Shown piece by piece: positions 9,163-64,000 of a stretch of 64,000 nucleotides of DNA. Every line of letters begins with the position of its first letter. Positions within the stretch are counted from its first letter, which is position 1. The stretch is from a virus. The stretch covers positions 6,243-70,242 of the IMG/VR virus record IMGVR_UViG_3300009180_000039; one strand, 5' to 3'. The translations under genes and the position numbers were made by a program. The notes beneath the pieces were generated by a model. That model was not told the DNA's origin, made no database searches, and worked only from the letters and a program-made list of their open reading frames with translations.

Positions 9163-9347
9163 TGTACTGGAATCCCAGACTCAACGTGCATCTTTATCAT
9201 ACGCAAGACGAACATGAGCAAGTAGAAGTAGAAGAACGGTGCCAATAGCACCGCCATACCATAGGCAAACACCTTGAACAAGGTGCCAAACACTATTTCG
9301 GTTATCGCTGCGTCTGCGGGGGTCATCCCCCATTTGTTCTTTCTCAT
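9159..9347 (-). CDS. Small membrane protein (inverted insert)
   Basis: Hydrophobic segment; AAGGAG RBS and TATAAT upstream on minus strand. Confidence 0.65.
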   Translation of the reverse strand: MRKNKWGMTPADAAITEIVFGTLFKVFAYGMAVLLAPFFYFYLLMFVLRMIKMHVESGIPVQ

Positions 9348-9447
9348 AGTAGTCTCCTTGCGTCCATTATACACCCATATTTCAGCATCATCCCAAGAAC
9401 TCTGCTAGAATTGCCCCTATCAGTTTCTCTAATGGGGTAATATCGGT

Positions 9448-35163: not shown

Positions 35164-35164
35164 T

Positions 35165-43713: not shown

Positions 43714-45068
43714 GACACTGGTGAGACTTCAGTTTCAACCTTCAACGTAATTACCTGCCAAGGCCACGCTTCGCGTAGCTTTGTGGTCATGTACATGGTA
43801 CACATGCCCACGTAATCATGCAACTGATCTTTGTGGACAATTCCCAAAAGGCTATCGTGAACCTGACAGATTAGCTCGCAATCCATGCCGGTGCGGTCGA
43901 TCTCTTTCTGTATCCAAATCATGGACTGGAGCAGCGCGTGGTATGCCGTTGATTGTACCGGGTAGTTGATAATGCTGTTGCGACGTTCCACGCCTGCCCA
44001 AGTAAATCCTGTAAGATTAGTAAAGTACCCTCTGGCTAGGTATTGGTTATACCAATCTTTTCGCCACTTGCCATAGTCTTTGAACAAAACATTCCAGAAT
44101 ACTGATTCCATCTCACGTATCTTGGTAACAAAGGCATCGTCACCGTGGGACTCTATCCATTCTCCCTCGTTATGGTCAAAGTCGAGTCCTAGTCGCTTGA
44201 TGCCTTGACTAGCTAGTTGCTCGGACATGCCGAGTTTATTGACATCTTTCCACATCTTCAGGGCTATGTTACGGTAGTAGTCCCCGTACGCCAAAGAAAA
44301 GGAAAATCCTTTCGCGGATTGCCGTAGTTCCTTTGCTTTCTTGGGGTTCTCTTTGATGAACTCGTCGCCGAACATGAACGTCTGGCGGGCTATGTCCATG
44401 TGCATATCGTAATCTGTGTCCAAATAGCGTACCATAGTGGCGTCCTTGTGGTAGCTACATGCAATAAAGACTTCAAGATTCTTAAAGTCGATTTCGACCA
44501 GTACATGGTCTTTAGGGGGAACTATGGTCCCCTTAACGAAGTTAAGCAGGATTTTGTTCCTGGCAGGAAGGTTCTGTAAATTGGGTGAATCACTAGATCC
44601 TCTGAAACTCTTTACTCCGTGCAGACTGAAAAATCCCCGCAATCTTCCATCGATAGTGTCCCGCTTAAATGCCTGTAGATACGTTCCACGTATTTTGTGC
44701 ATCTTCTGCAACTGGATGTAGTCATCTAGGTAGTCATTGTCAATAGCATCTACGGCTTCCTCATCCATCACGTAACGGCCCGACTTGGGCGATTTAACGC
44801 CTCCTGGCACCTTCATGCAATCGAACAGGATCGTAGCAAGCTGGTCTCGGGAACCGAGAGAGGTTTCCTTGCCGTACTTCTTACGCTGTTCTATGTATAC
44901 AGGGTGCTTTTTCAGCTTGCTGGAAACATCCGAGATAGACTGATCGAGTAACTCGATGTTTCTATCAAGGCTTCTCTCGCACACGGGGAGGCCGTTAGCC
45001 TCCATTCGTGCAAGCATAATGGTTCCTTCTAGGAACAATCGGTGCGCAGCTTTGGTACTTGGTCTCAT
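43674..45068 (-). CDS. polA: Family A DNA polymerase, polymerase domain only
   Basis: ME.NG, PNLQNLP, motif A D...LE, motif B RQSAKGFSFSLAYG (Phe at the 762-equivalent), NYPVQS, motif C VHDS; starts MRPSTK with no exonuclease domain. Confidence 0.93.
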   Translation of the reverse strand: MRPSTKAAHRLFLEGTIMLARMEANGLPVCERSLDRNIELLDQSISDVSSKLKKHPVYIEQRKKYGKETSLGSRDQLATILFDCMKVPGGVKSPKSGRYVMDEEAVDAIDNDYLDDYIQLQKMHKIRGTYLQAFKRDTIDGRLRGFFSLHGVKSFRGSSDSPNLQNLPARNKILLNFVKGTIVPPKDHVLVEIDFKNLEVFIACSYHKDATMVRYLDTDYDMHMDIARQTFMFGDEFIKENPKKAKELRQSAKGFSFSLAYGDYYRNIALKMWKDVNKLGMSEQLASQGIKRLGLDFDHNEGEWIESHGDDAFVTKIREMESVFWNVLFKDYGKWRKDWYNQYLARGYFTNLTGFTWAGVERRNSIINYPVQSTAYHALLQSMIWIQKEIDRTGMDCELICQVHDSLLGIVHKDQLHDYVGMCTMYMTTKLREAWPWQVITLKVETEVSPVSWADKTAYTGNES

Positions 45069-45751
45069 TTGTTCTTTCTTTTGTATCGCACTGGGGTCGT
45101 AAGGGCTCGCTCTAACTCCCACCCAGCAGTAAGACGGGCACATAGAGCAGGATAGTTTATGCCTGTCTCCTCTGCCCATGCAACCATACACTGCGTCTTT
45201 CCGAAAGCCGTAAGCAGTGTATTGTTTCGGCGATTTCTAGCTTGTTCCGTATACGTTGCCCATTTACAGTTCTCTGGGCAATATCCTTTGTTTACATCTT
45301 TTCTATCAATGGTATGCCTAGCGGAGGGCCTTGGTCCGACATCCCGTAGAAAGGTTTCAAATCCTGTAAGAGGATCGGACCATTCCGAGCATACGGCAAC
45401 ACCTCTCCCGCCGTAGTCGTTCCATCCAATATCGTTAGCATTAGTGCATCTATGTATGATACAGCTCCATGAGCCATACTCGGGCATGTGGGAAAGCCCA
45501 TGTGTTCTAACTAAACCTCCGACTATTCCAGGTTGCAGGCATCCGCAACTCCTAGTGTTGCCGTTAGGTAGATGGTCCGCTCGTATTACTACTGCTTCAG
45601 GGTTTCCGCAAGAACAAGTGCATACCTGCCATGTTTTTACTCCCATTCGAAACCTAGGACCAAGGGTTGTTAAACGACCGAAAGTCTCTGGAACAAAGTC
45701 CTTGTAGTCACTTGCAATTCTGATCCCATGTACTAGAATGTACTTATCCAT
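45065..45751 (-). CDS. HNH endonuclease 1 (free-standing)
   Basis: GRLT, C.C.CG, SCGC, YGGRG..VC, IDR.D....Y.P.NC.WAT..EQ..N motifs. Confidence 0.9.
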   Translation of the reverse strand: MDKYILVHGIRIASDYKDFVPETFGRLTTLGPRFRMGVKTWQVCTCSCGNPEAVVIRADHLPNGNTRSCGCLQPGIVGGLVRTHGLSHMPEYGSWSCIIHRCTNANDIGWNDYGGRGVAVCSEWSDPLTGFETFLRDVGPRPSARHTIDRKDVNKGYCPENCKWATYTEQARNRRNNTLLTAFGKTQCMVAWAEETGINYPALCARLTAGWELERALTTPVRYKRKNK

Positions 45752-45845
45752 AGATGATACTGTCCTATCGTTTGTGGCTAGAAAAGCCAGTGGGGTACGA
45801 TCCACTGGCTTTTCGCATTGTAGCACATCTACTTGATTCTTGCAA
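45712..45845. promoter_or_regulatory. Convergent promoter / hairpin / antisense-RNA cassette of HNH1
   Basis: Minus TTGCAA-17-TACAAT (45845-45817); 13-bp hairpin 45781-45814; plus TTGCAA-16-TAGAAT (45712-45739) inside the ORF. Confidence 0.75.
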
Positions 45846-47240: not shown

Positions 47241-48632
47241 TTAAATAAACTCCGAAATAAGGTGGAAACGACCAAGGGGAGGTGCGCCTCCCACAGCCAA
47301 ATAAGACGATGGTAGTTGTGACAGATAGTTCCGCTCCCGCAAAACTATCCAATTCATTCTTGTGATCTGTTGATCTCTTTCCGTTACGGTCGCGTTTAGC
47401 CCTAAGCAGGCGTTAGCATACGCCCAAATAGACTTGCTACCAGTAAATGAGGATTGTGTTAGCCAGTAGGTGCTACCGTGGTAAGCATCTGCGTTGACTT
47501 GACTAGCAGTAAGCACAAGGGACTTGAACTCGCTGCTAATAGCCCTAAGCTTAGACCACGCATGTTCTATCGCTTCATGGCTTTTTTCAAAGCCCCGGCT
47601 AAACCCAAGCAAAGCGGCATAGTCGATTCCAATAACATCAGGAACCCATCCCTTGTTTGCCCATCCCAGTAGTGTCTTGTGTAAATCTTCTACTGTCATG
47701 GTTCGGGCTGGTCTTGTGATAAAACGAATTAGGCACTCGCCTGCCGGGTCTTTTAGCTTAGTCCACGCTTCGCTTGCCTCGTCAGTAGTATACGCAGCCT
47801 TCTGGTACTTCTCTAAGTATTCCAAAGAAAATTCTTTGTTTTCGTACTTCAGGCTCGTAGGAATCTTGATTTTCCCCGCAAATTCGGACTTACCTACGAA
47901 TCCAGTAGTCCATCGCTTTAGCATTTGCTCGGTGCTCAAGTCACCCAGATTAAAGAAAGCGACACGCTTTCCCTGTAGCAATGCCCTCTGGCATAGATTG
48001 GTCAGGTGGCTGGACTTACCTGACTTATCCGCACCGCATAGAACTACTAAAGCATCCCTGTGTAACGTAGGTCCGAACCACCGGCTGATTGCAGTCCCTT
48101 CTTTGAACTTAATCAAAGGCTCATAATTAGCCGCTGTATGGGATTGGGCAATAATAGAAGGGTCATTGATGGGGTCCAGGTAGTCAACATCGGCAGTCAA
48201 TGTTGGAGGTTGCCATGTTTTGATAGTATCCGTGGCAGCTTGGACGTTGCCGTTGGCTAACGCAGCTTGGACCCTATCGGCTAGTTGCTTTGCTGAATGG
48301 CGGACAACTAGCCTTTCTATAAGCGAGACAGCATAGTCGGGGTTCAGTTGCGTAGGACTCAATGACGAAAGGAATTTACCGACCAGCGAGGACGTAGCCT
48401 CGTCAGCGGTATTCGCCCATTCGGCATAGATCGCAGTAAGCGATACCGCCCCAGGGGCTTCCTTGTATTCCGCATAGTGCTTTCGGCACCAGTTGTACAC
48501 CAGATTAGATACTTTGGCAGCAAACGGCGATTCGGGCAAAGCATCCACAACTCGGGATAGTACCTCGGTGTCTAAGCACAGAGCTACTAATGCTAGCTGT
48601 TCTTCCGTTCCTTTCACTTGGGTCACTTGCAT
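47241..48632 (-). CDS. dnaB: Replicative DnaB-like (SF4) helicase
   Basis: Walker A GADKSGKS, IGIDYA, LTASQ motifs; next to primase. Confidence 0.88.
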   Translation of the reverse strand: MQVTQVKGTEEQLALVALCLDTEVLSRVVDALPESPFAAKVSNLVYNWCRKHYAEYKEAPGAVSLTAIYAEWANTADEATSSLVGKFLSSLSPTQLNPDYAVSLIERLVVRHSAKQLADRVQAALANGNVQAATDTIKTWQPPTLTADVDYLDPINDPSIIAQSHTAANYEPLIKFKEGTAISRWFGPTLHRDALVVLCGADKSGKSSHLTNLCQRALLQGKRVAFFNLGDLSTEQMLKRWTTGFVGKSEFAGKIKIPTSLKYENKEFSLEYLEKYQKAAYTTDEASEAWTKLKDPAGECLIRFITRPARTMTVEDLHKTLLGWANKGWVPDVIGIDYAALLGFSRGFEKSHEAIEHAWSKLRAISSEFKSLVLTASQVNADAYHGSTYWLTQSSFTGSKSIWAYANACLGLNATVTERDQQITRMNWIVLRERNYLSQLPSSYLAVGGAPPLGRFHLISEFI

Positions 48633-49309
48633 GTTGACCCCTTTGGTCTTTGAGACACTGCTTGTTCGTGAGTCCAGCCCTTGTTTATTCTATGGTTTAT
48701 AGTAGTTATGCCCACGCCATAGACCCTAGACCATTCCGATATTGTTTTAGTTTCTCCAAATGCTGTTATGTGTCGATTGCATCGTTTATTGTTTGCCTGT
48801 TCTTTTGCTGTTGCCCATCGACAGTTTTCAGGGCAGTAATCTCCGTTTACGTCGATTCGGTCAACCGAATGCTTAGGAGAAGGTCTCGGCCCCATGTCTT
48901 CTAGGAAGTTTAGGTACCCGCCGTTTTCTGCTTTCCATCTTGAACACACTTCTATCCCCCTTCCTCCGTAGTGGGGGTAAGATTTTACTTTCTGATTATA
49001 GCATCGCGTGTGCATACTTGACCACGCTCTATATTCAGGCGGCTGCTTGCCATGTACACCATGCCCATGTGTAATTGATCTATTCCTAGTGACTTCCTTG
49101 GCCAAGCACCCACATGAATGTGTCTGTTTTCCTAAACACTGTCGCATAACTACGGCTGTGTTACCGCAAGCACACTGGCAAGTTTGATAGGTCAGCTTGC
49201 CTAGAATGAATCTAGGACCAATGGTCGTTAAACGACCGAAAGTCTCGGGAACAAAATTTTGGTAATCCTTGTCAATACGGATACCATTGATTACAATATA
49301 CTTAGCCAT
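48623..49309 (-). CDS. HNH endonuclease 2 (free-standing)
   Basis: Same motif set as HNH1; shares the FVPETFGRLTT N-terminus. Confidence 0.9.
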   Translation of the reverse strand: MAKYIVINGIRIDKDYQNFVPETFGRLTTIGPRFILGKLTYQTCQCACGNTAVVMRQCLGKQTHSCGCLAKEVTRNRSITHGHGVHGKQPPEYRAWSSMHTRCYNQKVKSYPHYGGRGIEVCSRWKAENGGYLNFLEDMGPRPSPKHSVDRIDVNGDYCPENCRWATAKEQANNKRCNRHITAFGETKTISEWSRVYGVGITTINHRINKGWTHEQAVSQRPKGSTCK

Positions 49310-49402
49310 GATGACTCCTATTAGTCGTTGGTGGTTAGAAAAGCCGGGAGTGTGGTTACTCCCGGCTTTTCGCATTGTAGCACAAACGACAGGTCGTTGC
49401 AA
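49269..49402. promoter_or_regulatory. Convergent promoter / hairpin / antisense-RNA cassette of HNH2
   Basis: Minus TTGCAA-17-TACAAT (49402-49374); 14-bp hairpin 49338-49371; plus TTGTCA-17-TACAAT (49269-49297) inside the ORF. Confidence 0.8.
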
Positions 49403-49413
49403 GGAAATCATAG

Positions 49414-49708: not shown

Positions 49709-50581
49709 CTATTTCTCCCCAAAAGCAAAGCGTCTAAGTTGCCGGACCTCTTGCTCGGATGCCGAGCCTGGGTCTTCTGCGTCCAAATTTACCACAACAG
49801 TTTCTCCTGGGAATACAGATAATTCAGCGGCTAGCTTATTTGCCCTACGCTGTGCATTTTCACTATTGTCAAAGCAGATGATCCTACGCCATATACTGGC
49901 GAGACGATCCACTTGTGCCATAGTGTATGACACACCAAGGGTTGCTACGCAACCTTTACCTACCCGGAACACATCCGTAGGCCCCTCGCAAATGATACAC
50001 GTATCCTTGACGAACTGTGCCCCGAAAAGCAAAGTTTTTTCGTCCATCGACTTTTCGCCGGGACCGGCGTTGCGATACCTCGGCTCTTGCCCGCACGCGG
50101 CCCTAGCCGTCCAGCTAACCGCTTTGCGGTTCAAGTAGATGGGCATGAACACCCGGAACGGGTAATTGCTGAATGGTCCGGTTGCCCGGACTCCCCAGAC
50201 CGTCTCCAGGTACTCTAAATCAAAGCTACGCTGCTTCAGATAGGCAGCTACGGCAGGTACAGCCTCAAGCGGCTGGAGCATAGTAGGCGGAATAAATACG
50301 CCCTTAGAAGCGGTATCCGCTTCCTTGGGTAGATAGGCTCGGTTCCCGAGCAGTTTGTAGATTTCCGACCACGGGGCATCGGTCAGGTCTTTTAGTAGCT
50401 TAGGGACGTGAAACGACCCACAGACGTAGCAATTGGACCTGGAAAGATCGTCTTTTAGACCGCAGTGGAACTTGGTAGAGCCACAGCGAGGGCAATCGGT
50501 CTGGGTCCACCCATGTCTTGAGTGCGAGCGGTCAGTCTTCGACCATCTCGCACCGTATTTATCAAGGAATTCAGTAAGCAT
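49709..50581 (-). CDS. DNA primase (Zn finger + TOPRIM)
   Basis: CP.C...C..C, YL..R, CEG..D, A.LG, FDN and DPG motifs. Confidence 0.9.
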   Translation of the reverse strand: MLTEFLDKYGARWSKTDRSHSRHGWTQTDCPRCGSTKFHCGLKDDLSRSNCYVCGSFHVPKLLKDLTDAPWSEIYKLLGNRAYLPKEADTASKGVFIPPTMLQPLEAVPAVAAYLKQRSFDLEYLETVWGVRATGPFSNYPFRVFMPIYLNRKAVSWTARAACGQEPRYRNAGPGEKSMDEKTLLFGAQFVKDTCIICEGPTDVFRVGKGCVATLGVSYTMAQVDRLASIWRRIICFDNSENAQRRANKLAAELSVFPGETVVVNLDAEDPGSASEQEVRQLRRFAFGEK

Positions 50582-52970: not shown

Positions 52971-53302
52971 TATACCTCATGGTCCATTGTTTTCAGTTCT
53001 TCCAGAATCCCAGTCTTACGCCTAGATCGGAACCGATGTAATCGGTCAGCGATATCGAGCCCCTCTCGCATAGCGTATACCTTCAGGTACGACAACACCC
53101 ATTCTACAGGGAAATCGTAACATGCGACGTACTTTTGGAAAGATTCATCTATTTTCTGGTGGAAGTCTTCGACTTCGCTAGCGGTCTTGGCTGTTACTGC
53201 ATTAAGGACTCTTCCAGCATCGTCATCAACGGTAGGTCGTGCGTCGGCTTGCCGTCGATCACTGCTGCTGCTATCCCCGCCTTCATCTCTATCGCCTTGC
53301 AT
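52970..53302 (-). CDS. Hypothetical protein (true start probably near 53200)
   Basis: C-terminal part fills the gap after the helicase gene. Confidence 0.45.
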   Translation of the reverse strand: MQGDRDEGGDSSSSDRRQADARPTVDDDAGRVLNAVTAKTASEVEDFHQKIDESFQKYVACYDFPVEWVLSYLKVYAMREGLDIADRLHRFRSRRKTGILEELKTMDHEV

Positions 53303-54528
53303 AGCTTCTCCTCAATAGTGTTCTCGGTCAAAAGAAATATGGTCCGGGTATCCCGGTCTTGTCCTATCCGGTGGTTCCGGGCATTCAACTGCTCGACCGC
53401 TCTGCTGGTCCAGGGTAGCTCTGCGACTACGGTAGTGGTCGCTGCTGTCAGAGTGATCCCTGCACCAGCGGCCTTAATTTGGCATATAGCTAGTTTTTTC
53501 TGGGGATCGTTCTGGAACTGCTCAATCAGTTTAGTCCGCTTCGCGGCGGAGACTGAACCGTTAATGACTATGGACTCGTCTTCGGCAGCGGCTCGCCGCT
53601 GAATGACATCAATAAACTTGGTATGGATTGCGAAGACTATTAGCTTCTCATTAGGATTCTCCGCAAGGAACTTGCGAATCCACATAACTGTAGCTCTTGC
53701 CTTGCATCTAGCAACCAGCATAAGTAGATTAGTTAGTAGGGATAACTTGTCCGCTCCCTTGGTGCGGAATAGTCCATGATCCCTAATAGCCCCAACGTAC
53801 TTTTTGTGGAGTACGTCGTAGGTCTCCCGGTCGTCCATCGCAATAGTCTCGATGCTGACAGTCTGCTTGGGCAGGTTCAGTATGGACTTGTCCCTTCGGA
53901 GCATAAACGGCTTTAGCCGTTCGTGTAACTCGGGCAGGTGGCAAGCACCTTTGTATTGCCAGCCGAAACGCTCGTGGTACGTGGGCGAACAGTATCGCCA
54001 TAGGTACTCCCGTTCATCGGGGAAAAGGTCCGGTCGAATCATGTGGAGCATTGGGTAGAAACAGGCGGGGCGGTTAGCTATCGGAGTACCGCTGAGCCCC
54101 ATGACCCTTGGGCAATGCTTGCCGATGGTCATAGCTGCTGCTGTCCATTTGGTTGCCTTGTTGGCTAAAGTGTCACATTCATCAAACACCACCAAAGAAA
54201 ACTGCTGTTCCAGCAGCCATTCCTTCTGGTGGTGCAGGATGTCATAGTTGATAATAGCCAACTGGTGGGTCATTTCACCCTCGTAGGGTGCTTGACCATC
54301 AACTATGACTGCCTTGTGTCCTGTGAACTCCTGAAACTCTTTCTTCCATGCCCCTTTGACCGCAGGCGGACAGACCACCAGCATGGGCCATTTGTCAAGG
54401 TACTCCATGTACATGATAGTAGAGAGCGTCTTGCCAAGACCAGGAACCGAAGAATTTAAGATCCTTCCATCATTTGCCTTAGCAAACTCAAAAGCTTCTA
54501 CTTGGTGGGGCAGGGGCGTTTTACGCAT
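53194..54528 (-). CDS. SNF2-family (HARP/ZRANB3-like) helicase
   Basis: GLGKT, INYD, VFDEC, LSGTP, LRR.K, AG.GITLT.A, Q...R.HRIGQ motifs. Confidence 0.93.
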   Translation of the reverse strand: MRKTPLPHQVEAFEFAKANDGRILNSSVPGLGKTLSTIMYMEYLDKWPMLVVCPPAVKGAWKKEFQEFTGHKAVIVDGQAPYEGEMTHQLAIINYDILHHQKEWLLEQQFSLVVFDECDTLANKATKWTAAAMTIGKHCPRVMGLSGTPIANRPACFYPMLHMIRPDLFPDEREYLWRYCSPTYHERFGWQYKGACHLPELHERLKPFMLRRDKSILNLPKQTVSIETIAMDDRETYDVLHKKYVGAIRDHGLFRTKGADKLSLLTNLLMLVARCKARATVMWIRKFLAENPNEKLIVFAIHTKFIDVIQRRAAAEDESIVINGSVSAAKRTKLIEQFQNDPQKKLAICQIKAAGAGITLTAATTTVVAELPWTSRAVEQLNARNHRIGQDRDTRTIFLLTENTIEEKLCKAIEMKAGIAAAVIDGKPTHDLPLMTMLEESLMQ

Positions 54529-54922: not shown

Positions 54923-55244
54923 ATTGTACCTCACAATGTTTGAACCATAAACCACTCTGGGACCGCCAGCCCGCAAACGGGCGATGGTCCACCACAACGT
55001 CGTATACCCAAGGATCATGTCTAGTCAGCCTAAACCTAGCAGGACGGGGAACCCCGTCCCATGCACCCAAGGTCAATCGCTTCCAATTGTTTTCAATCTT
55101 CCGCAGGATAGCCACAGGGCAAAGCATCATAGGGCTATTGTAGTCATGCTGCATGACCTCACCCATCGATCTCAAATACAGTTCCCCGTGATCGGGATAC
55201 CCGATCCTGATTAACTCAAAGCCTTCTGGGATTCCTGAGACCAT
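54900..55244 (-). CDS. Hypothetical protein, divergent member of the same paralog family (copy 4)
   Basis: IPEGFEL....P..GELYL...ILRK....WKRLT. Confidence 0.7.
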   Translation of the reverse strand: MVSGIPEGFELIRIGYPDHGELYLRSMGEVMQHDYNSPMMLCPVAILRKIENNWKRLTLGAWDGVPRPARFRLTRHDPWVYDVVVDHRPFAGWRSQSGLWFKHCEVQYGKKENG

Positions 55245-55726
55245 TAGTTCCTCACAACTACTCGGCGGCCAGCCGCCCTTGTGTGCTTCTCTCTGATCGA
55301 CTCAAGGTCACGCATGACCTCTCGTTCTGATCGACCTACTTGCTTCGCAAGCGACTTGGCCGTATAACGGCCCTGTGCTCCAAGAGCAGCGTCTACAAGA
55401 CTTTGCTCATCTGCATCCAATGATACACTGGAACGAAAGACATCTGCCTCTTTTTGTACTAATTTTGGCATCGTGAACGATGAACGGCGTTTGGTGAACA
55501 GGAAAGACCGAGCAACTTGGAAAATAAAGGTCGTGGGCTTGCCCCGGCTAGGGTCGTACTTCACCCGTTTACGGGTGTAAAACAAGTAAAATTCTTGGAA
55601 TAATTCCTCGGTATCGCCCAAAAACGCACTGTTTCTTGCGGCTTGTGCTAGAATCTTGATGGCGTACTTTGCATTACCGTCAAAAGCGGCATCGAGTTCA
55701 GGTGTTACATTGATGGTACTTTGCAT
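55244..55726 (-). CDS. Sigma-factor-like protein (region 2 + HTH)
   Basis: EELFQE...YDPSRG..TTF region-2 motif and a C-terminal LA..VG.S.R.V HTH. Confidence 0.7.
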   Translation of the reverse strand: MQSTINVTPELDAAFDGNAKYAIKILAQAARNSAFLGDTEELFQEFYLFYTRKRVKYDPSRGKPTTFIFQVARSFLFTKRRSSFTMPKLVQKEADVFRSSVSLDADEQSLVDAALGAQGRYTAKSLAKQVGRSEREVMRDLESIREKHTRAAGRRVVVRN

Positions 55727-56811: not shown

Positions 56812-57642
56812 CTAGGTTTTCTTTTTCGTGTACTTCAATGGGGTTTTTAGTGCTGTCTCTAAATCCCATCCACGGCTTATCCGATTCCTTACCGTGCCAT
56901 CATCAATACCGTGTTCTTTCGCCATCTTAGATAACCCGGCAATAAACTTGGTTTTCTTCTGCATTGGCTTAGCCAGGGCATCCTCGGCACTCCATCCCCT
57001 ACCTAATCGCCAAGCTACTGCATTCGGGCAAACTTGAAACTGTTCAGCAAACGCAACTAGCGGCTTAGTCTCGCCAAAAGCAGTAAGTAGCCGATTGTTA
57101 CGTCTGTTTCTGCCCTGCTCTTCTGGTGTAGCCCACCGGCAATTTTCGGGGCAATAGTTACCGTTTACGTCTTTGCGGTCGATTGAGTGTCTAGCGGACG
57201 GTGCCCGTCCTACGCACGACAAGAAGTAGGTGAACCCTGTTTGGGGGTCTAGCCATTCACTACAGACTACAATCCCCCTTCCTCCGTAGTTGTGGTACTC
57301 TTTTGCATTTTCGTTGTAGCAGCTAAAAATCATCCTTCTCCATGCGCGATACTCCTTTGTTCCGTTATTTGTGGCTTCGCCGTGTTTGGCATTGTCTCTA
57401 TTTCGCTGGGCTGTTGCCTCTCGTGTTAGGCACCCACAACTCCTTGCCTTGCCGTTAGCGACTTCGTAGTACCTAGCTACGTGTACGTTACCACAACTAC
57501 ATTCGCAGACAATTCTGGGTATTGGTGTCCCGTTAGGCTGCCTTACCCAGAAAATAGGACCAATAGAAGACAGTCTCCCGCTTGTGATAGGGGTAAAGTC
57601 TGTGTCGATTCTGATGGAATGGTGTATACTATGGTTAGCCAT
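56812..57642 (-). CDS. HNH endonuclease 3 (free-standing, duplicated C-terminal DNA-binding repeat)
   Basis: Same motif set as HNH1/2; two R..RGW..E.AL..P repeats. Confidence 0.9.
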   Translation of the reverse strand: MANHSIHHSIRIDTDFTPITSGRLSSIGPIFWVRQPNGTPIPRIVCECSCGNVHVARYYEVANGKARSCGCLTREATAQRNRDNAKHGEATNNGTKEYRAWRRMIFSCYNENAKEYHNYGGRGIVVCSEWLDPQTGFTYFLSCVGRAPSARHSIDRKDVNGNYCPENCRWATPEEQGRNRRNNRLLTAFGETKPLVAFAEQFQVCPNAVAWRLGRGWSAEDALAKPMQKKTKFIAGLSKMAKEHGIDDGTVRNRISRGWDLETALKTPLKYTKKKT

Positions 57643-57714
57643 GATGACATTTATCCTGTCGTTAGGGTTAGTAGATGCCTAGTGGAGACGACCACTAGGC
57701 ATCTACCTATTATA
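57602..57714. promoter_or_regulatory. Convergent promoter / hairpin cassette of HNH3 (divergent version)
   Basis: Minus TATAAT (57714-57709); 15-bp hairpin 57671-57706; plus TATACT (57625-57630) inside the ORF with a weak -35. Confidence 0.55.
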
Positions 57715-57777
57715 CACTACGACACAGAAAAGTATATGTTTTTCTGTGTAAACTGTCCAACAAGGAATAGTAATGCT

Positions 57778-58419
57778 ATGGCGAGACGAAAGCGTGCAAC
57801 AAGTCAGGACTCCGAAGCTTTTCAGGGCATGCCAAGAAGGTTTAAGCCAAAAAATGAGGCCCAATCCAGGCTGTGGGACATAATAGGGCAGAATACTGTG
57901 ATTTTTGTGCTCGGCCCCCCAGGCAGCGCAAAGACGTTTGTAGCTACTTCTTGGGCGTTAGATGCAGTGCAACGCGGAGAATTTGGTCGCGTGGTTATGA
58001 CCCGCCCTCTTATCCAAAGCACGGAGTCTACCGGCTGGCTAAAAGGGTCGATAGAGGATAAAACGGCTCCGTTTATGCGTCCTATGACAGATATCATGCG
58101 GAAGATATCCCCTAAAGAGCCGGAGATAGACGTAATCCCGCTTGCCTTTATGCGGGGCATCACCTTAGACCATTGTGTGGGACTATTGGACGAAGCCCAG
58201 AACTGTAACGTGCCCCAACTTAAACTGTATCTAACTCGCCTTGGTGAAAAGGCGAAGTTAATCATTAGTGGCGACACGGATCAAGTGGACGTAAACGATA
58301 GCGGTCTGCTTCAAGTGGCGGAAAAATTACGTGGATTACCGGGAGTCGCTGTGTTCGAGTTCACTAAAGCTGATATAGTACGCCATCCTTTGGTTGGGGC
58401 GATGCTAGATAGGTTCTAG
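57778..58419 (+). CDS. phoH: PhoH-family ATPase
   Basis: GPPGSAKT, TRP, K..PF, PLAFMRG.T, DEAQN, LTRLG, GD..Q.D, DIVRHPLV; start moved to MARRKR. Confidence 0.95.
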   Translation: MARRKRATSQDSEAFQGMPRRFKPKNEAQSRLWDIIGQNTVIFVLGPPGSAKTFVATSWALDAVQRGEFGRVVMTRPLIQSTESTGWLKGSIEDKTAPFMRPMTDIMRKISPKEPEIDVIPLAFMRGITLDHCVGLLDEAQNCNVPQLKLYLTRLGEKAKLIISGDTDQVDVNDSGLLQVAEKLRGLPGVAVFEFTKADIVRHPLVGAMLDRF

Positions 58420-58610
58420 GCTCGGCGATTCCAGTCAGCAATAGCCACGTCTCTATCGTACCGCATCCCATCGGGGCAGGAGACTGCCCCACAGCCCGTA
58501 CACTCTACTTTCCAGTCCCCGATATCATCTCTCTGGTAACAGGGGACGGCTTCGCCGCCGCAGAACGGGCAGGGCAATAGGTGGGTCCATTGGACTGTGG
58601 TTGATTTCAT
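58416..58610 (-). CDS. Lar-like (restriction alleviation family) Zn-ribbon protein
   Basis: L.PCPFCGGEA...C..CG...AI..WNRRA. Confidence 0.8.
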   Translation of the reverse strand: MKSTTVQWTHLLPCPFCGGEAVPCYQRDDIGDWKVECTGCGAVSCPDGMRYDRDVAIADWNRRA

Positions 58611-58659
58611 TTGGGCTAGTAGCCTAGCACTAGATGTAGGGCTTTTCTGTGGTCCTAGG

Positions 58660-58932
58660 TCACTCATCGCTAGAGATGCTCCAGTCTTCATCATAGGAAA
58701 CATCGGCCAGTTTCACTGGCAACCTGCCTCTGTCGCATAGCCAACTATCGTTGGCAGGGCGGCAAGCATACGAAACGATATGTACTGGTCCCTTGTCGCA
58801 TAGCCACTCGATCATGTCACACAACCGCAGGCTGTGCCCCTCGTTGATGAGTTCCCCATTGGCATACATGCCAGCCCAGTCATCGGCATAGACTTCGACT
58901 AGCTTAATCTCTTGTACTTTGCTCATCGGCAA
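58660..58932 (-). CDS. Hypothetical protein
   Basis: DDW.G.Y..G.L..EGHS motif. Confidence 0.65.
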   Translation of the reverse strand: MPMSKVQEIKLVEVYADDWAGMYANGELINEGHSLRLCDMIEWLCDKGPVHIVSYACRPANDSWLCDRGRLPVKLADVSYDEDWSISSDE

Positions 58933-59195: not shown

Positions 59196-59256
59196 CCTAG
59201 TACCTAGTACCTAGTACCTAGTACCTAGTACCTAGTACCTAGTACCTAGTGCCTAG
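59196..59256. repeat. Heptamer tandem array (CCTAGTA)7 + 1.7 degenerate units
   Basis: Read directly; reverse complement of the array at 63910. Confidence 0.97.
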
Positions 59257-59269
59257 GCAGATAGTGGCA

Positions 59270-59665
59270 TTATTCATTCGGTCTCCCCAACCACTGGATA
59301 GCGTAGTTGCTTCCTCTCTTGCATGGAATGAACCTACCAACAAAGATACCCTTGTGCATGTCAATCTGCTTGAGCATCTTAACGAAGTCAGCGAAGAACA
59401 TCTGGTAACGGTTCCCGTTAGTGACACTATGGACCACGAGCCTAGCCGCTGACTGGCCCCGCTCAGTGTCCACTAGGACTAGGGTATCCTCGAACTCGGT
59501 TGCTGGTTCGTATTTTAGTGGTAATGATCTCCGAATTGGAAAGTTGTGGTAGAACATGCTACGTTCCTCTAGGTCGATGTACGGCCCGTTGTCGGTAATG
59601 TACTCCCGCACCCCTTCGCACTCGACATAGGGAACCATCAATGGTTCTTTGGGTTTCTTAGTCAT
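59270..59665 (-). CDS. Hypothetical protein
   Basis: RG.SAA...Y.MF..D...G.F...KRG.NY motif I recall from phage hypothetical proteins. Confidence 0.75.
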   Translation of the reverse strand: MTKKPKEPLMVPYVECEGVREYITDNGPYIDLEERSMFYHNFPIRRSLPLKYEPATEFEDTLVLVDTERGQSAARLVVHSVTNGNRYQMFFADFVKMLKQIDMHKGIFVGRFIPCKRGSNYAIQWLGRPNE

Positions 59666-60140
59666 TGGATCGGTTCCCGATATACTGAATGACTACCTTG
59701 TACATATCATTGTTCTTATCGTCAGTAAAGAACCCAGTAACAGATTCCTCGTCAGCAACTTCGCGTGCCTCGATAAGGCTGACAGCGAGCATAGTAACAG
59801 GGCACTCCTCAGTTTCCAGGTCGATTTGCTGTTGAGCAGCGTGCGACGGACAGCAAGCAGAGGGCGTGCAACGCCCAAGCTTGACAACGCCCTCTTGATG
59901 TGCTTTCCATATCTTCAGCATTGTCTTTATGTCTTCTTTATCTTTCGATAGCTTGATTAGGTACTTTTCATCAAGAGCCAACAGATTGTACCGTTGTACT
60001 CCGCCCCAATTATCTTCGAGTAGGATAATCTCCCAGTGGTGTTTGTTAACGAGTAATGAAAACACACCACGTCGAGGATCAAAGAATACCCCTTCACCTA
60101 GTCGCTCGGCTACTGCTTTGTGGTCGCTATTTACTTTCAT
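59658..60140 (-). CDS. Hypothetical protein
   Basis: 160-aa coupled ORF. Confidence 0.65.
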   Translation of the reverse strand: MKVNSDHKAVAERLGEGVFFDPRRGVFSLLVNKHHWEIILLEDNWGGVQRYNLLALDEKYLIKLSKDKEDIKTMLKIWKAHQEGVVKLGRCTPSACCPSHAAQQQIDLETEECPVTMLAVSLIEAREVADEESVTGFFTDDKNNDMYKVVIQYIGNRSND

Positions 60141-60615
60141 GCTTTTTCTTTGCTTTGATTCTTGCCTTTCGGCGTGATTGAATTTCTGACTCTGTGATGC
60201 CTTGGAACATAGCCACAGGATTCGGCAAAAGCCGAATAGATTGTGCTAAGTTACCATATCCGATGGCTTTCGCAACCGGGAAGTTATTTTCCGAAAGCAG
60301 ATACCACTCCTCCACCAGTATCTTGACTGAGATCCTCAGTCCCTTGAGCCCGGTAGTCTTCTCTATCTCCTCAATGAACTTAGGCTTAGTGATTGCTGCA
60401 ACGGGCGGTCGCCCGTTAGGCAGAGGCTTCCTATAGCTTTTGAGTGCGTCCCGCACCACAGACGGTGCGTAGCCCGTCATTTGGGTTACGGCAGCGTAGG
60501 TCATGTGGACCCCAAGGCTCTTGGCGGCTGATAGTATCTCGCTCTTTGCCCGCTTGCTGGGCAGGAGCGTAGTTTTGTTGGTTTTCCTGGCCATTACTGC
60601 TAGATCCCATGCCAT
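60127..60615 (-). CDS. Basic hypothetical protein with possible HTH (start uncertain)
   Basis: TYAAVTQMTGYAPSVVRDAL is HTH-like. Confidence 0.6.
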   Translation of the reverse strand: MAWDLAVMARKTNKTTLLPSKRAKSEILSAAKSLGVHMTYAAVTQMTGYAPSVVRDALKSYRKPLPNGRPPVAAITKPKFIEEIEKTTGLKGLRISVKILVEEWYLLSENNFPVAKAIGYGNLAQSIRLLPNPVAMFQGITESEIQSRRKARIKAKKKHESK

Positions 60616-61439
60616 TCCGCAGGCATCATATTTTCCGGGAGCCCCGAAGTGAACCATTTTGTGGGGTAGGCAGTATTCTTCTGCCCATACCCCATAGCTC
60701 GGAGTCTTCCGAGCCAACTGAAACTACTGTTTCCGATAGCAAAGTAAGGCACATAAGCCATGCTGTAAAGCTGGGTAGCTGCATCCGAAATATAGTCCTC
60801 GGCATACAGCGCATCCTTGAAGCCTAACTCAGGCACCAAATGCTCTTTGCACCAAGGTACATCGTCGCTGTAAACGACCAACTGCTCAGAGGCTCCCAAA
60901 CCTCCATTTTTGCCCCTTAGAAGCGAGATCGCTTCCTTGTAGTAGTCTACGCCCATGACCCCGTGGAACGCGAATGCGTTCGGTTGGGTGATGTAGTCGC
61001 CCCGGCGGACATGGATACCTATTGCTTCGAATGATAGCTTATGTAGGAAAGTGCTAAATCCCATCCATGCGGTGTCACCTATCATTTTAGATGTAGTGAA
61101 CATGAACCGTAAGTCCTCGTAACTAGGCAATGCAGCGAGTCGCTGCCAGTAGCCCTGCACAACATAGTCCTTACCGTCATTAGGCACGCTAGATGCCTCC
61201 CATTCGAGCGATATCGCTTCTGGTGGAACTTGGTCCACCGTAGCTGCGGGAACCCGCAGAAGGGTGTTTAGCTCGAATTGGCGAGGGGTAATGCCACTGT
61301 TCTTGTCTTGGTGTGACTTCAGGAAGCTAAGGTCGCATACGACCTCTGCTCCTATTGGCTGTGCCAGCCGCGTAGCGGCTGCGAATTGTATTGCGGTATT
61401 CGCAAGGCCGCCCAGAAGGGTAACATATAGCTTGCTCAC
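60600..61439 (-). CDS. GT11 alpha-1,2-fucosyltransferase-like protein
   Basis: GGLAN..QFA, GYWQ, GIHVRRGDY (GDP-sugar binding), YSDD..WC, NSSFSW; GTG start coupled to the upstream TGA. Confidence 0.9.
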   Translation of the reverse strand: MSKLYVTLLGGLANTAIQFAAATRLAQPIGAEVVCDLSFLKSHQDKNSGITPRQFELNTLLRVPAATVDQVPPEAISLEWEASSVPNDGKDYVVQGYWQRLAALPSYEDLRFMFTTSKMIGDTAWMGFSTFLHKLSFEAIGIHVRRGDYITQPNAFAFHGVMGVDYYKEAISLLRGKNGGLGASEQLVVYSDDVPWCKEHLVPELGFKDALYAEDYISDAATQLYSMAYVPYFAIGNSSFSWLGRLRAMGYGQKNTAYPTKWFTSGLPENMMPAEWHGI

Positions 61440-61837
61440 TTGGCAATCTCCGCAATCTTTTCCAGTAGGACCACTCTCGGTGCAACCGAGACTTTGACCA
61501 ACTTGTAGGTGTTCTCTCCCAAGATAATGACACCTGCGACGCACAGACCTATCGCAAACAGAACTTGGAATATGCCCGCGACGAGTATCTCGTCTCCCCA
61601 TTCGTAGTTGTTTTCGGCTCTTTTGAGGGTGCTTGGTACAAAGTAAGCCAGTACAAATGAACTGACAAGCAGTACCGCACCTAGTATTACGCAGAACAGG
61701 GTAGCTGCCCAATACCAGTTCAGGTACTCGGTCACCACAAGCGGAATCTCAGATTCCACAAACGCGGAACCGCGTTCAATGCGTTCGGCACCTGCTTGCA
61801 GGTATTTGAGCAGTAGGTCTTTTGTTTCTTCGTTCAT
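61436..61837 (-). CDS. Two-TM membrane protein
   Basis: F...EIP.VV.EYL.W, two TM segments, APRV.L motif. Confidence 0.75.
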   Translation of the reverse strand: MNEETKDLLLKYLQAGAERIERGSAFVESEIPLVVTEYLNWYWAATLFCVILGAVLLVSSFVLAYFVPSTLKRAENNYEWGDEILVAGIFQVLFAIGLCVAGVIILGENTYKLVKVSVAPRVVLLEKIAEIAK

Positions 61838-61879
61838 TTGGCAGTTTTCCCACTTATGAAAAGTCGTTAAAATACGAAA

Positions 61880-62029
61880 AGGTTCCGGCAGGACTGGCTA
61901 CCTGCAACGGGGGCCGTTGTTAGACATCCGGCTTTCAACCATCTGGTCATCCCCCAGGGGCTTTCGGCGACTGCCGCCCGCTCCCCTTGCCTTACCCTGC
62001 AATCCGTTAGTTATTCAGCCACGGAACCT
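61880..62029 (-). ncRNA. Structured RNA candidate (~150 nt) with tRNA-like closing helices
   Basis: AGGTTCCG/CGGAACCT terminal stem, adjacent GCAGG-TAGCCAGT-CCTGC hairpin, AACGG/CCGTT helix, GC-rich internal stems; intergenic; strand inferred from context. Confidence 0.6.
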
Positions 62030-62113
62030 AAGTTGCCCTGCCTCAACTTGTCTGGCTAGGAGCTAACTTGCTATCAGTATACGCCGGGAACCGGCCCTTG
62101 TGGGGAGAAATTG

Positions 62114-62278
62114 CTAGAATTTCTTGAACTCATCTACGCCATGTATCTTGCAATGGCACTTATAGCAAACCACTTGGATGTCGCTACGCTATTCCTTGCC
62201 AAGTGGTTGTAAAACGACGGCATCATTGTCCTCCAGGTGCCTGATGATTTCTTTGTGTGCGTTTCTTTCTGGTTTCAT
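62114..62278 (-). pseudogene. Small ORF with in-frame TAG followed by an HNH C-terminal relic
   Basis: ...LGKE*RSDIQVVCYKCHCKIHG resembles the LG.E...D...LC..CH...H end of small HNH nucleases. Confidence 0.5.
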
Positions 62279-62496
62279 TCTTCTAACTTCCACCCTTTCG
62301 ATGTTGCTACCCACGGCCCGGAAAGCTTTTCCCGGCTGCCTGTTTTTACTTCCCGGATCACGCCGTTGTGTAACACCCCGCACCGAAACGTCTTCCCGCT
62401 CCTGATGTGTACCAGGGCGACGGGGCCCAGGACGCAGGCAGCGGTCCATTTATCGACCTCGTACTCGCCGCTATCTTCGTTGTACTCCAACTTCAT
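62275..62496 (-). CDS. Hypothetical protein
   Basis: 73-aa ORF, AGGGG RBS, ATGA-coupled to the next ORF. Confidence 0.6.
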   Translation of the reverse strand: MKLEYNEDSGEYEVDKWTAACVLGPVALVHIRSGKTFRCGVLHNGVIREVKTGSREKLSGPWVATSKGWKLEE

Positions 62497-62673
62497 AATT
62501 TTCCCCTAAAGTAAAATGGAAACCCAGGATTACCGCTCCTGGCCGCGCCGGTCGCAAATCGACGCTGTTCGTCATGCTCGAAAGTTTCGCCCGGACCTTT
62601 TGCTTGCCCGTCCGAAGTATTCTACACAAAATACCTAACGTGGGAAATGTTTTTTCAAATCTTTTCTTGGCTC

Positions 62674-63783
62674 TCATTGATTTGGTTTCTCCTTTAATGA
62701 AACGACTATCCCGGCCTTTTTGAAACGGGCCACCATCACCCGGCGAACATAATCCACTTTGTTTATAGGCACCATGACTTCATCATGGCAAGTAATCACA
62801 GGAATTCCCTTGTAGTCTTTGGTTATCGTTGCGGCAACACCGTCGATCATTATTAGAGATTCAAGTGATTGCATATCGTGGGCCACACGCTGATATCCTC
62901 CTTCGACCTTGCGTTGCCGCAAGTAGGAAGCCACGCTGGGCCATCTGCATTCGATTACCTGGAAGTAGGGGCACTTTTCCATAGCCCACACACGGTCGAA
63001 AATGGTTTTGATTACGGAGTTCTTGATCGTAGCACGATCATTAACCCCAATTTCGTTGCCGAATTCCTCGTACAGAACACCCCGTTGACATAGGCTTTCC
63101 CATTCCAGGGCATCAGGGCCGGGGAATCTTCGCTTGGCTAATAGCCCGAGTAACGCAGGCTGGCAGCATTGTACATCAATGGCCGTCAACGGCCACCGGG
63201 ACTGTAGGTAGTGGCGATGTTTGCAGTTGGTAAAGTTGCTATGGAACCTGCCAAAGTCACAGCGTAGGGCAAACCAATTCTTTTGGCGAATCCTGGACGC
63301 GGTGAACATTTGCCATGGGTTACCAAAATCCAGGCAATCAGGAAGCCACACAGAAGCAAACCGGGAATAGAGTTCCTTGGAAATTGGGTCCAAGTTGAAG
63401 TTGAATGGAGAGCTACGGGGTTTTCGGCTCAGGGTGTGGTAGTCGGCTTCGCCGCTCAGGTATTCAGGCTGGAAACGGATGGACTGAGAAAAAGACGATC
63501 CAGGCTCATTGGAATACCTATCGTTGAAGTCAAACAGGTGGCTATGTTCTCTGGCCGCCTGTTTGGCTTTATGGGCGTAATTTCCGCCATAAGTATAATG
63601 CAATTGGTTGTAGCTAAGGGGTACGTAATGCCTGTAGTCTATGTACGCATCACGAGAAGCCGTCATGCACATTAGCCACCAAGCAAGGCGGGCTACTTCG
63701 TCGGCCCATTCCCCTTGGATATTAGAATTTTTGGGAACAGGAATGACCAGTTTGTTGACGGGATCTTGGTCACAGTGTATCAT
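62674..63783 (-). CDS. Small superfamily-A-like polymerase (TV-Pol-like; candidate primase-polymerase/Rep)
   Basis: GRFHS..TN, motif A IDVQCCQP, motif B-like R...K...., MQSLES, motif C CHD; no exonuclease; extra N-terminal domain. Confidence 0.75.
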   Translation of the reverse strand: MIHCDQDPVNKLVIPVPKNSNIQGEWADEVARLAWWLMCMTASRDAYIDYRHYVPLSYNQLHYTYGGNYAHKAKQAAREHSHLFDFNDRYSNEPGSSFSQSIRFQPEYLSGEADYHTLSRKPRSSPFNFNLDPISKELYSRFASVWLPDCLDFGNPWQMFTASRIRQKNWFALRCDFGRFHSNFTNCKHRHYLQSRWPLTAIDVQCCQPALLGLLAKRRFPGPDALEWESLCQRGVLYEEFGNEIGVNDRATIKNSVIKTIFDRVWAMEKCPYFQVIECRWPSVASYLRQRKVEGGYQRVAHDMQSLESLIMIDGVAATITKDYKGIPVITCHDEVMVPINKVDYVRRVMVARFKKAGIVVSLKEKPNQ

Positions 63784-63896
63784 GTAGCTATGGCTTTCTG
63801 GGCAGTGCGGTGTCTGGAACGCTTAGAAAAGCCGTTGGCGGTGAACCAACGGCTTTTCGCTTTTACCCATTGTACGGGGTTTCGGGATTTTGTCAA
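63755..63896. promoter_or_regulatory. Convergent promoter / hairpin / antisense-RNA cassette of the small polymerase
   Basis: Minus TTGACA-16-TACAAT (63896-63869); 13-bp hairpin 63826-63858; plus TTGACG-17-TATCAT (63755-63783) overlapping the ATG. Confidence 0.8.
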
Positions 63897-63909
63897 AAAT
63901 AACCTAGCC

Positions 63910-64000
63910 TAGGTACTAGGTACTAGGTACTAGGTACTAGGTACTAGGTACTAGGTACTAGGTACTAGGTACTAGGTACTAGGTACTAGGTACTAGGTAC
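63910..64000. repeat. Heptamer tandem array (TAGGTAC)13+, cut off by the window edge
   Basis: 13 perfect units up to base 64000. Confidence 0.98.

Follow-up and report, generated by a model that had tools for sequence, protein, structure and literature searches.

The stretch of DNA analysed here (the window, 64,000 nucleotides) comprises bases 6243-70242 of the 70,242-base IMG/VR virus record IMGVR_UViG_3300009180_000039, which is classed as linear. Its last part contains a gene for a 369-amino-acid (aa) protein that fits the TV-Pol/divPolA2 kind of minimal polymerase. According to its structural model, the protein is a family A palm and fingers fold with an intact catalytic set and a reduced thumb, lacks an exonuclease and carries a winged-helix-like domain at its N-terminus. 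The gene is preceded by a promoter, a hairpin, an opposing promoter-like site and an array of perfect heptamer repeats. Based on these features we tentatively propose (probability roughly 0.45) that the protein is a tightly restrained, site-specific primase-polymerase. This proposal is carried by the fold, the catalytic residues, the conserved arrangement of promoter, hairpin and opposing promoter, and the linkage to upstream repeats in the phage relatives; the repeats themselves may have a role in it.

Fold and active site of the polymerase

The gene and the two parts of its product are located as follows.

62674..63783, minus strand: minimal family A (TV-Pol/divPolA2-like) polymerase gene, 369 aa (open reading frame (ORF) with ATG start)
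62677..63276, minus strand: beta-hairpin Arg, palm and fingers, residues about 170-369 (placed by the invariant residues in 50 sequences)
63409..63756, minus strand: N-terminal winged-helix-like domain, residues about 10-125 (domain model and VIA structural alignment)

The ORF encodes a real, conserved protein. A word-indexed search returned 10 relatives (two with 87% and 83% identity, seven with 38-40% and one with 28%). In an exhaustive search of 1.84 billion cluster representatives, 1277 matched at E<=0.001, 247 at E<=1e-10 and 21 at E<=1e-30, most of the matching representatives being 350-450 aa long. The 369-aa protein has no domain match in Pfam and none of 50 relatives matches a polymerase family there; the DNA_pol_A model (PF00476) matched 0 of 50 family members at E<=0.01. 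For 10 proteins of the family NCBIfam gave no match, and PADLOC gave only one weak, unrelated match, in one of the 10. The single match of the protein in PHROGs (phrog_4756, function unknown) was weak (E 0.038), no PDB chain matched by sequence at E<=10, and a search of plasmid sequences yielded neither the family nor a near relative of the polymerase. Among GenBank phages only six uncultured phages of 595-735 kb matched, with 24-25% identity across about half of the protein. Only 3 of the 301 Planctomycetota genomes searched contained a match; one genome had two copies, one of which adjoins ParB-methylase, methylase and helicase genes.

The AlphaFold2 model of the polymerase (11 sequences) had a pLDDT of 86.1 and a pTM of 0.80. 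It was compared with 48,161 PDB representatives by VIA structural alignment. The top rows were family A DNA polymerases, namely apPol (Z 15.1, root mean square deviation 3.4, 232 aligned), Pol theta (Z 15.0), T7 DNA polymerase (Z 14.8) and Klenow (Z 14.7). Single-subunit RNA polymerases (RNAPs) were also matched: the yeast mitochondrial enzyme with Z 14.5, T7 RNAP with Z 13.3 and the 404-aa N4 RNAPII with Z 9.9. Unrelated folds began at about Z 7. Foldseek against the PDB gave 75 matches at E<=0.001, and those listed were family A DNA polymerases. Among the viral models of BFVD the best matches were phage proteins of about 400 aa (TM 0.67); at lower ranks there were a barbavirus (Barba31A) protein (E 1.4e-5) and a Zamilon replication protein (E 5.5e-4). 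A preliminary description of this DNA had recognised polymerase motifs and no exonuclease in the 369-aa protein and had asked for a structure search to place the fold. The search assigned it to the family A polymerases (Z about 15), of the TV-Pol type, and the conserved residues, the lack of a Pfam domain and the winged-helix N-terminus bear the description out.

R179, H181, D203, Q208, K254, Q305, E308, H333 and D334 are invariant in 50 diverse relatives. R250, F262 and E335 are additionally invariant among the 11 closest, R250 not being among the columns conserved at >=90% in the 50-sequence set. The motifs present are IDVQCCQP (with D203 and Q208), R250xxxK254, Q305..E308-S309 and H333-D334-E335. 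The conserved residues correspond to the beta-hairpin Arg, the motif A Asp, the motif B RxxxK and the motif C HDE; in the model R179 is flanked by strands 172-174 and 180-182. An hhalign alignment to the phage's own PolA was weak (E 0.11, 34 columns). In it D203 falls on the motif A Asp, Q208 on the Glu five residues on, and the hairpin region opposite the NLQN region; it is too weak to support the steric-gate assignment by itself. A Glu five residues past the motif A Asp is the steric gate of DNA polymerases, and RNA polymerases have a Gly at this position. The steric-gate Glu is named in PMC10201439. In the present family the position is taken by an invariant Gln, which does not indicate a preference for either sugar.

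No exonuclease was found among Pfam domains, and the N-terminal 125 residues model as a winged helix. Modelled alone, the N-terminal domain had a pLDDT of 74.7. Most of its 50 VIA rows were winged-helix DNA-binding domains, among them NtcA (Z 6.4), the plasmid initiator pSK41 RepA (4pta_D, Z 6.2) and ORC2 (Z 6.0), with LexA, MarR and Cdc6 following. As all these matches were below Z 8, only the fold class (winged helix) is claimed. Enzymatic activity, priming and DNA binding are predicted for the protein.

Promoter, hairpin and opposing promoter

The leader of the polymerase gene contains the following elements.

63869..63896, minus strand: sense sigma70-type promoter TTGACA-16-TACAAT (11 of 12 matches)
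63826..63858, no strand assigned: perfect 13-bp hairpin GAAAAGCCGTTGG / CCAACGGCTTTTC, terminator-like both ways (arms 63826-63838 and 63846-63858, 100% complementary)
63790..63868, plus strand: predicted cis-antisense RNA of about 80 nt, with putative ends
63755..63783, plus strand: opposing promoter TTGACG-17-TATCAT (10 of 12 matches), the last three letters being complementary to the ATG

These elements were compared in 8 phage-type loci, which represent about five independent lineages because of the near-identical pairs L011/L021, L012/L016 and L013/L017. A promoter-like sense site was present 113-131 nt ahead of the ATG in seven of the eight loci, the exception being L010. The opposing site was likewise in register in seven of the eight, with the -35 placed at +28 and the -10 extending to the ATG, that of L010 being shifted by 9 nt; as a control, such a site was found at 3 of 43 other ORF starts in the window. 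In an alignment of the hairpin from 9 sequences, 13 pairs were predicted, of which 7 were changed on both sides and none on one side only. The absence of G-U pairs in these hairpins fits a structure that is needed on both strands.

The number of promoter-like sites in 62000-64000 (3) was no higher than in shuffled sequence (2.2, standard deviation 1.6), and the case therefore rests on conservation. Across the loci the promoter match scores were modest (8-10 of 12), and the signal of the opposing promoter is partly coding, codon 2 being always xTA and codon 10 Asn. The segment 63788-63870(+) folds as two hairpins with CGCUUUUAC after the second (-34.6 kcal/mol, z -3.68), and a cis-antisense RNA over the leader is predicted on these grounds. 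The leader gave no Rfam match at E<=1. The near-consensus promoter, leader hairpin and opposing promoter over the ATG that had been reported at first reading are thus all present, and they recur in the relatives.

Tandem repeats upstream of the promoter

Further upstream the promoter is bordered by heptamer repeats, of which a second, inverted array lies at a distance.

63902..63921, no strand assigned: inverted heptamer ACCTAG-G-CTAGGT closing the array on the promoter side, shortly before the -35 (from the sequence; found in the terminator scan as a 7-pair inverted repeat)
63909..64000, no strand assigned: (TAGGTAC) array of 13.1 perfect copies, period 7 (Tandem Repeats Finder (TRF) score 184; cut by the end of the record)
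59196..59256, no strand assigned: second array (CCTAGTA x8.7), reverse-complementary to the first and flanked by two minus-strand genes (TRF, 8.7 copies)

The first array is perfect, as previously described, and is separated from the -35 of the sense promoter by twelve bases. Towards the intervening 4.65-kb segment (59257-63908) each array terminates in CCTAGGC. The last base of the record is window base 64000 and lies within the array, which is thus the point where assembly stopped; the first bases of the record fall in the middle of a gene. CheckV estimates the completeness of the record at 100%, and a physical genome end at the array was considered as a candidate explanation. The cumulative AT skew is lowest where the record ends and simply mirrors the direction of transcription.

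Three freshwater metagenome runs contain the stretch, and two of these are possible source samples; among RNA runs none was listed as containing it. In the independently built Logan contigs of the 3 runs, 59257-63908 was covered with no differences and no joints, and the contigs stop 30 nt into the array at either side. One run has the segment as a 4712-nt contig with 30 nt of each array, which says nothing on array length or orientation. Because independently built contigs reach 30 nt into them, the arrays are real sequence and not the artefact of a single assembler.

Tandem arrays were surveyed within 350 nt upstream of the ATG (TRF score >=40). Seven of the eight phage-type loci had such an array, where the array density of these loci would predict about 0.09 per 350 nt; the upstream sequence of the eighth locus was only 149 nt long. 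Neither of the two integrating-element loci (L015 and L018) had one. Absence of linkage between homologues and repeats, which the preliminary description had named as fatal to its proposal, is therefore not what the survey found. The repeat unit of L010, whose protein is 41% identical, is a 21-mer of three GGTAC-type heptamers (x3.3). L011 and L021 have a 32-mer containing a hairpin with loop GAACGTAGTGA, L012 and L016 have TTGCGCATTTGT, and L013 has a 10-mer (x2.5). Copy number varies between near-identical phages: 5.8 in L011 vs 2.8 in L021, and 2.2 in L012 vs 3.2 in L016. In L011 a perfect 10-bp inverted repeat (TGCGCAAATT/AATTTGCGCA) lies over the -35.

Repeated stem-loops with the conserved loop GAACG(T/A)AGTGA, whose copy number varies between near-identical phages, were observed upstream of the polymerase promoter in L011 (8248-8432), L021 (5204-5292) and L012 (8108-8190). 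Their stems differ (GCAACC/GGTTGC, GCAATC/GATTGC and TAGCC/GGCTA), and they might be single-strand DNA or RNA signals.

The exact heptamer array was found in just two other IMG/VR contigs, both unrelated to the window phage. Intergenic (TAGGTAC)-type and other short tandem repeats were seen in two unrelated phage contigs, L022 (8196-8453 and 9523-9635) and L023 (11838-11879 and 13028-13070), and phages of these waters may more widely carry such CTAG/GTAC-rich microsatellites. The 35 TRF rows of the window also include a perfect (GTTG)10 microsatellite at 1195-1234.

The same cassette on HNH endonuclease genes

The hairpin of the polymerase leader was found at two further places in the window.

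45781..45814, no strand assigned: leader hairpin (same cassette) of HNH endonuclease gene 1, with its coding part at about 45065-45751 (phrog_374, E 1.6e-51)
49338..49371, no strand assigned: leader hairpin (same cassette) of HNH endonuclease gene 2, with its coding part at about 48623-49309 (phrog_374, E 1.4e-57)

A GAAAAGCC-stem-GGCTTTTC hairpin occurs exactly 3 times in the window, in the leaders of the polymerase and of these two genes, vs 0 times in 100 shuffles. The leader of the polymerase matches those of HNH genes 1 and 2 down to GCGAAAAGCC...GGCTTTTCTA. A third HNH paralogue has a different hairpin at the same place. An opposing promoter-like site, with the -35 at +40 and the -10 ending at +12, is present in the three HNH genes and in a paralogue in L013. 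The simplest reading of the cassette is a device in general use by these phages to restrain genes that are harmful when over-expressed.

The three paralogous HNH genes (45065-45826, 48623-49411 and 56812-57642, all on the minus strand) are 43-50% identical and belong to phrog_374 (E 1e-51 to 1e-57). They are inserted beside PolA, the DnaB-like helicase and PhoH, which is the pattern of free-standing homing endonucleases.

Genomic context

The polymerase gene stands first in a leftward early/replication block of 35 kb on the minus strand, which extends from 63783 to about 28400. Clamp-loader-like ATPase and RecA genes are also part of the block, as are the minus-strand genes below.

60600-61712, minus strand: GT11 (family 11 glycosyltransferase)
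58416-58703, minus strand: Lar
57481-58419, plus strand: PhoH, inside the region of the minus-strand block
55244-55726, minus strand: sigma-like gene (weak match to Sigma70_r2, E 3.3e-4, below the cut-off)
53194-54528, minus strand: SNF2 helicase
49709-50581, minus strand: Toprim protein
47241-48632, minus strand: DnaB-like helicase
43674-45191, minus strand: PolA, the regular polymerase (Pfam match to the polymerase domain only)

The PolA and Toprim proteins that had been noted at first reading are accordingly confirmed. In the window's record we found no tyrosine integrase, serine resolvase, transposase or ParB.

L010 is syntenic with the window. In L011, L012 and L013 the polymerase gene and PhoH are divergently oriented, a placement that differs from that in the window and L010. 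In these three loci the polymerase gene is directly followed by an ORF of 128-140 aa, with stop and start touching or overlapping; that of L011 matches an HNH endonuclease PHROG (E 8.5e-7) and that of L012 matches NinG (E 2.3e-4, below the cut-off). The 73-aa ORF downstream of the polymerase gene in the window (62275-62496) has its L010 homologue about 9 kb away from the polymerase gene. The planctomycete homologue in L015 has a tyrosine integrase upstream and a serine resolvase downstream.

A few further observations were made. In L015 an 847-aa protein is encoded directly before the polymerase gene (7459-10002, plus strand), with matches to a GHKL ATPase, a topoisomerase VI-B transducer and a Spo11/TopoVI-A Toprim domain, all weak and near the cut-offs. 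Just upstream of the membrane-protein and GT11 genes of the window, a manA RNA motif (RF01745) was matched sub-threshold at 61878-62049 (minus strand; 26.4 bits vs a gathering score of 55.2, E 0.0008), spanning model positions 1-192 of 192. A separate gene at 33943-35184 (minus strand), 8.5 kb from PolA, gave a weak uracil-DNA glycosylase (UDG)-like match (E 0.0019). The combination of PolA with a UDG-like gene is consistent with the split or UDG-linked PolAs described in the excerpts of PMC10201439.

Comparison with known systems

The locus was compared with plasmid replicons and with three groups of A-family polymerases. Two kinds of plasmid replicon are relevant, that of ColE2, with a Rep primase and RNAI, and those of iteron plasmids such as pPS10 or pSK41. 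The likeness is one of layout only: direct repeats, an inverted repeat at the promoter and the gene of a winged-helix protein, combined with an opposing promoter and a terminator that could yield a short antisense RNA over the leader. As in such replicons, repeats beside the putative initiator gene are kept in seven of the eight phage-type loci. Unlike plasmid replicons, however, the catalytic fold is that of family A (not Rep or archaeo-eukaryotic primase), the repeat unit is a perfect 7 bp, the antisense cassette is shared with nuclease genes, and the host replicon is a lytic-type phage of 70 kb that encodes a helicase, primase and polymerase of its own.

The preliminary description had gone further and had seen a plasmid-type replicon in this arrangement. 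Its repeats, promoter, hairpin and opposing promoter do recur, but the cassette, which is also on HNH genes, is not specific to a Rep gene. Copy-number-style control is not upheld, as the same layout on HNH genes reads as a general restraint on risky genes. Plasmid-like maintenance of the phage finds no support, the record having no ParB and the genome a full lytic-type replication set, while the description of the phage as integrase-less agrees with our search of the record.

The Transposon-Virus polymerase family (TV-Pol) was described by Iyer, Abhiman and Aravind in 2008 as a predicted primase-polymerase (PMC2579912), so that the enzyme class is already known as a prediction since that year. 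According to the same source its core is a minimal family A polymerase with a reduced thumb, a hairpin Arg, two Asp, a fingers RxxxK and no nuclease. An extra N-terminal domain is present in a subset, the genes occur in phages and in integrating elements of Planctomycetes and others, beside the normal replication genes of the host or the phage, and the elements are described as replicative transposons (PMC2579912). The window polymerase shares the beta-hairpin Arg (R179), the two palm Asp (D203 and D334) and the fingers RxxxK (R250 and K254), and it is without a fused proofreading nuclease; the HNH-type neighbour in L011-13 is not a proofreading one. It differs in its N-terminal domain, which is all-helical in the excerpts of PMC2579912 and a winged helix with three strands here. 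It also differs in that we saw no fusion to a D5-like helicase (for which the window contig was not searched) and no resolvase or integrase. No link to a named member emerged at the sequence level: in the Microcystis phage Ma-LMM01 (AB231700), a named carrier of TV-Pol, the family profile matched nothing at E<=1, an empty answer that is uninformative.

Yutin et al. (2024, PMC11348598) described divPolA2 in barbaviruses and related phages and, in the excerpts of the paper, suggested repair or RNA synthesis as its function. Like the window polymerase, divPolA2 is a divergent PolA additional to the regular polymerase; its palm looks active, it has no exonuclease, an N-terminal globular domain takes the place of a normal thumb, and its structure matches both DNA polymerases and mitochondrial RNAP (PMC11348598). 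In the Vibrio phage MG592441 the sole match of our 50-sequence profile lay inside AUR84708, a representative of divPolA2, and was weak (E 0.009, 11.6 bits), as was the hhalign alignment (E 0.0075, probability 5%, 177 columns). Unlike divPolA2, which has a Glu five residues past the motif A Asp and FDE in motif C, the window clade has Gln and HDE; it is a clade different from that of divPolA2.

The CcPol-MP or PolA-SSB primases of SCCmec and other elements of Bacillota (PMC7581432, PMC10061031) share the A-family fold. CcPol-MP, a truncated A-family polymerase, was shown experimentally to prime DNA de novo (PMC10061031), and it is the only tested precedent known for priming by such a fold. CcPol keeps a partial exonuclease domain, needs an adjacent small OB-fold partner and precedes a helicase gene, according to the same sources; none of these was found here. 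It clusters near true PolA, in the CHEAP subfamily (PMC10201439), unlike the window polymerase, which has no Pfam PolA match.

Proposed mechanism and alternative explanations

We propose that the protein is an active, exonuclease-less, thumb-reduced family A polymerase in which an N-terminal winged helix would be joined to a minimal palm and fingers core. The gene would be read from its near-consensus sigma70-type promoter, and expression is probably kept low by two elements: the two-way terminator-like hairpin, which immediately follows the promoter, and the predicted cis-antisense RNA of some 80 nt, which would extend from the first codons to the hairpin. The winged helix would bind a specific site, at which the polymerase would start or extend DNA chains as a primase-polymerase; the target probably lies in the repeat-bearing intergenic region by its own promoter. 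Synthesis would afterwards pass to the regular helicase, Toprim primase and PolA.

A number of results weigh against this proposal. With a Toprim primase, a DnaB-like helicase and PolA all present, a second primer-maker seems unneeded. Next to the polymerase gene there is no conserved small OB-fold partner, the fold of the downstream 73-aa protein not having been predicted, and no adjacent helicase. The structural alignment gave high scores for single-subunit RNA polymerases as well, the steric-gate position (weakly aligned) has an invariant Gln and neither the Glu of DNA polymerases nor the Gly of RNA polymerases, and repair or RNA synthesis is what Yutin et al. suggest for divPolA2 in the excerpts available. 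The layout of promoter, hairpin and opposing promoter is common to all three HNH genes and thus not specific to a Rep gene, and since the cassette is also on these genes it gives no evidence for copy-number or replication control. The second, inverted array has no polymerase gene adjoining it, and in the fetched stretch of the two other heptamer contigs no polymerase homologue was detected (tblastx, E<=1e-8). The repeat units are wholly different between clades, and repeats are commoner in long intergenic regions anyway. Typical iterons are imperfect and 17-22 bp long; thirteen perfect 7-bp units look like a slippage microsatellite and unlike classical iterons, and perfect short units with varying copy number are what slippage produces. 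Of the preliminary view that the array consists of iterons, the linkage to repeats in the relatives has thus held, and the slippage-like perfect units, the end of the contig within the array and the inverted second copy 4.65 kb off weaken it.

It is possible, though rather unlikely in our estimate, that the protein is an accessory enzyme for repair, bypass or gap-filling, or otherwise no initiator, and that the heptamer arrays are unrelated, hypermutable microsatellites; these may tune neighbouring promoters in a contingency-type manner or serve inversion of the 4.65-kb segment that bears GT11. The perfect 13- and 8.7-copy arrays are indeed inverted around 59257-63908 with GT11 inside, copy number differs between near-identical relatives, an identical array exists in two unrelated phage contigs, and other simple repeats such as (GTTG)10 are present in the window. 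Heptanucleotide repeats that switch phage- or pathogen-encoded surface-modifying genes have been published (PMC13001214, PMC8262952, both in excerpt), and the function favoured by Yutin et al. for divPolA2 (PMC11348598) points the same way. However, repeats with different units are found upstream in 5 separate phage lineages, for which chance is a poor explanation, the window and L010 retain GGTAC-type heptamers at the same place despite 41% protein identity, and the winged-helix head suggests a specific DNA site. An enzyme that itself makes the arrays by reiterative or slippage synthesis, as had also been suggested before, is highly improbable. GGTAC-type heptamer arrays do adjoin the gene in both the window and L010, and their perfect units fit recent synthesis, but other relatives have 32-, 12- and 10-bp repeats, the two unrelated contigs carry the identical array without the gene, and ordinary replication slippage accounts for perfect short repeats.

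Two further explanations concern the nature of the gene. A selfish mobile cassette, comparable to the free-standing HNH genes, in which a TV-Pol polymerase aids its own spread and not the replication of the phage (for example, it would copy from a nick made by an HNH nuclease), appears improbable to us. The leader is common to HNH genes 1 and 2, an HNH/NinG-type ORF directly follows the polymerase gene in L011, L012 and L013, and the position relative to PhoH differs between window/L010 and L011-13. In addition, the L015 homologue is flanked by a tyrosine integrase and a serine resolvase, matches are limited to 3 of 301 Planctomycetota genomes, and the TV-Pol elements are described as replicative transposons in the excerpts of PMC2579912. 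On the other hand, the window contig lacks integrase, resolvase and transposase genes, the polymerase has no nuclease gene as a neighbour in the window or L010, L010 has no second array as a possible end of an element, and the gene is retained in every related phage locus fetched, as expected for a useful gene. A mobile element ended by the heptamer arrays was set aside, there being no recombinase in the contig and no second array in L010. That the protein is a minimal single-subunit RNA polymerase of the T7 or N4 RNAPII type, transcribing a subset of phage genes, is very doubtful. The VIA scores for such enzymes, the lack of a Glu at the steric-gate position with its invariant Q208 and the location as an early gene behind a host-type promoter agree with it, and the option was raised by Yutin et al. 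for divPolA2 (PMC11348598, in excerpt). DNA polymerases, however, scored slightly higher by VIA, and the phage has a sigma-like gene (a weak match) and host-type promoters ahead of several genes. The GRFHS beta-hairpin, which we take to resemble the TGRLSS motif of DNA polymerases (the alignment is weak), also counts against an RNA polymerase.

Going beyond a site-specific primase-polymerase, the repeat-bearing intergenic region and the polymerase gene might together form a phage origin resembling that of iteron plasmids. Direct repeats, with an inverted copy at the promoter, would be combined with a counter-transcript and an autoregulated winged-helix initiator, itself a family A polymerase that would make the first DNA or RNA chain where it binds. 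We regard this as unlikely.

Implications

Polymerases that combine a minimal family A core with a DNA-binding head are very common (1277 representatives), yet they are outside Pfam, NCBIfam and PADLOC. If they are site-specific primase-polymerases, they would represent a widespread and overlooked way to start replication in phages and integrating elements, and could also be compact enzymes of practical use. If the origin reading is true, they would form a third structural class of origin-specific initiator-primase, one that works even in a phage with a complete set of helicase, primase and PolA. Two leads emerge for these phages. One is the presence of upstream repeats across phage lineages. 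The other is the regulatory layout common to the polymerase and the homing-type HNH nucleases, which points to a common restraint on risky genes.

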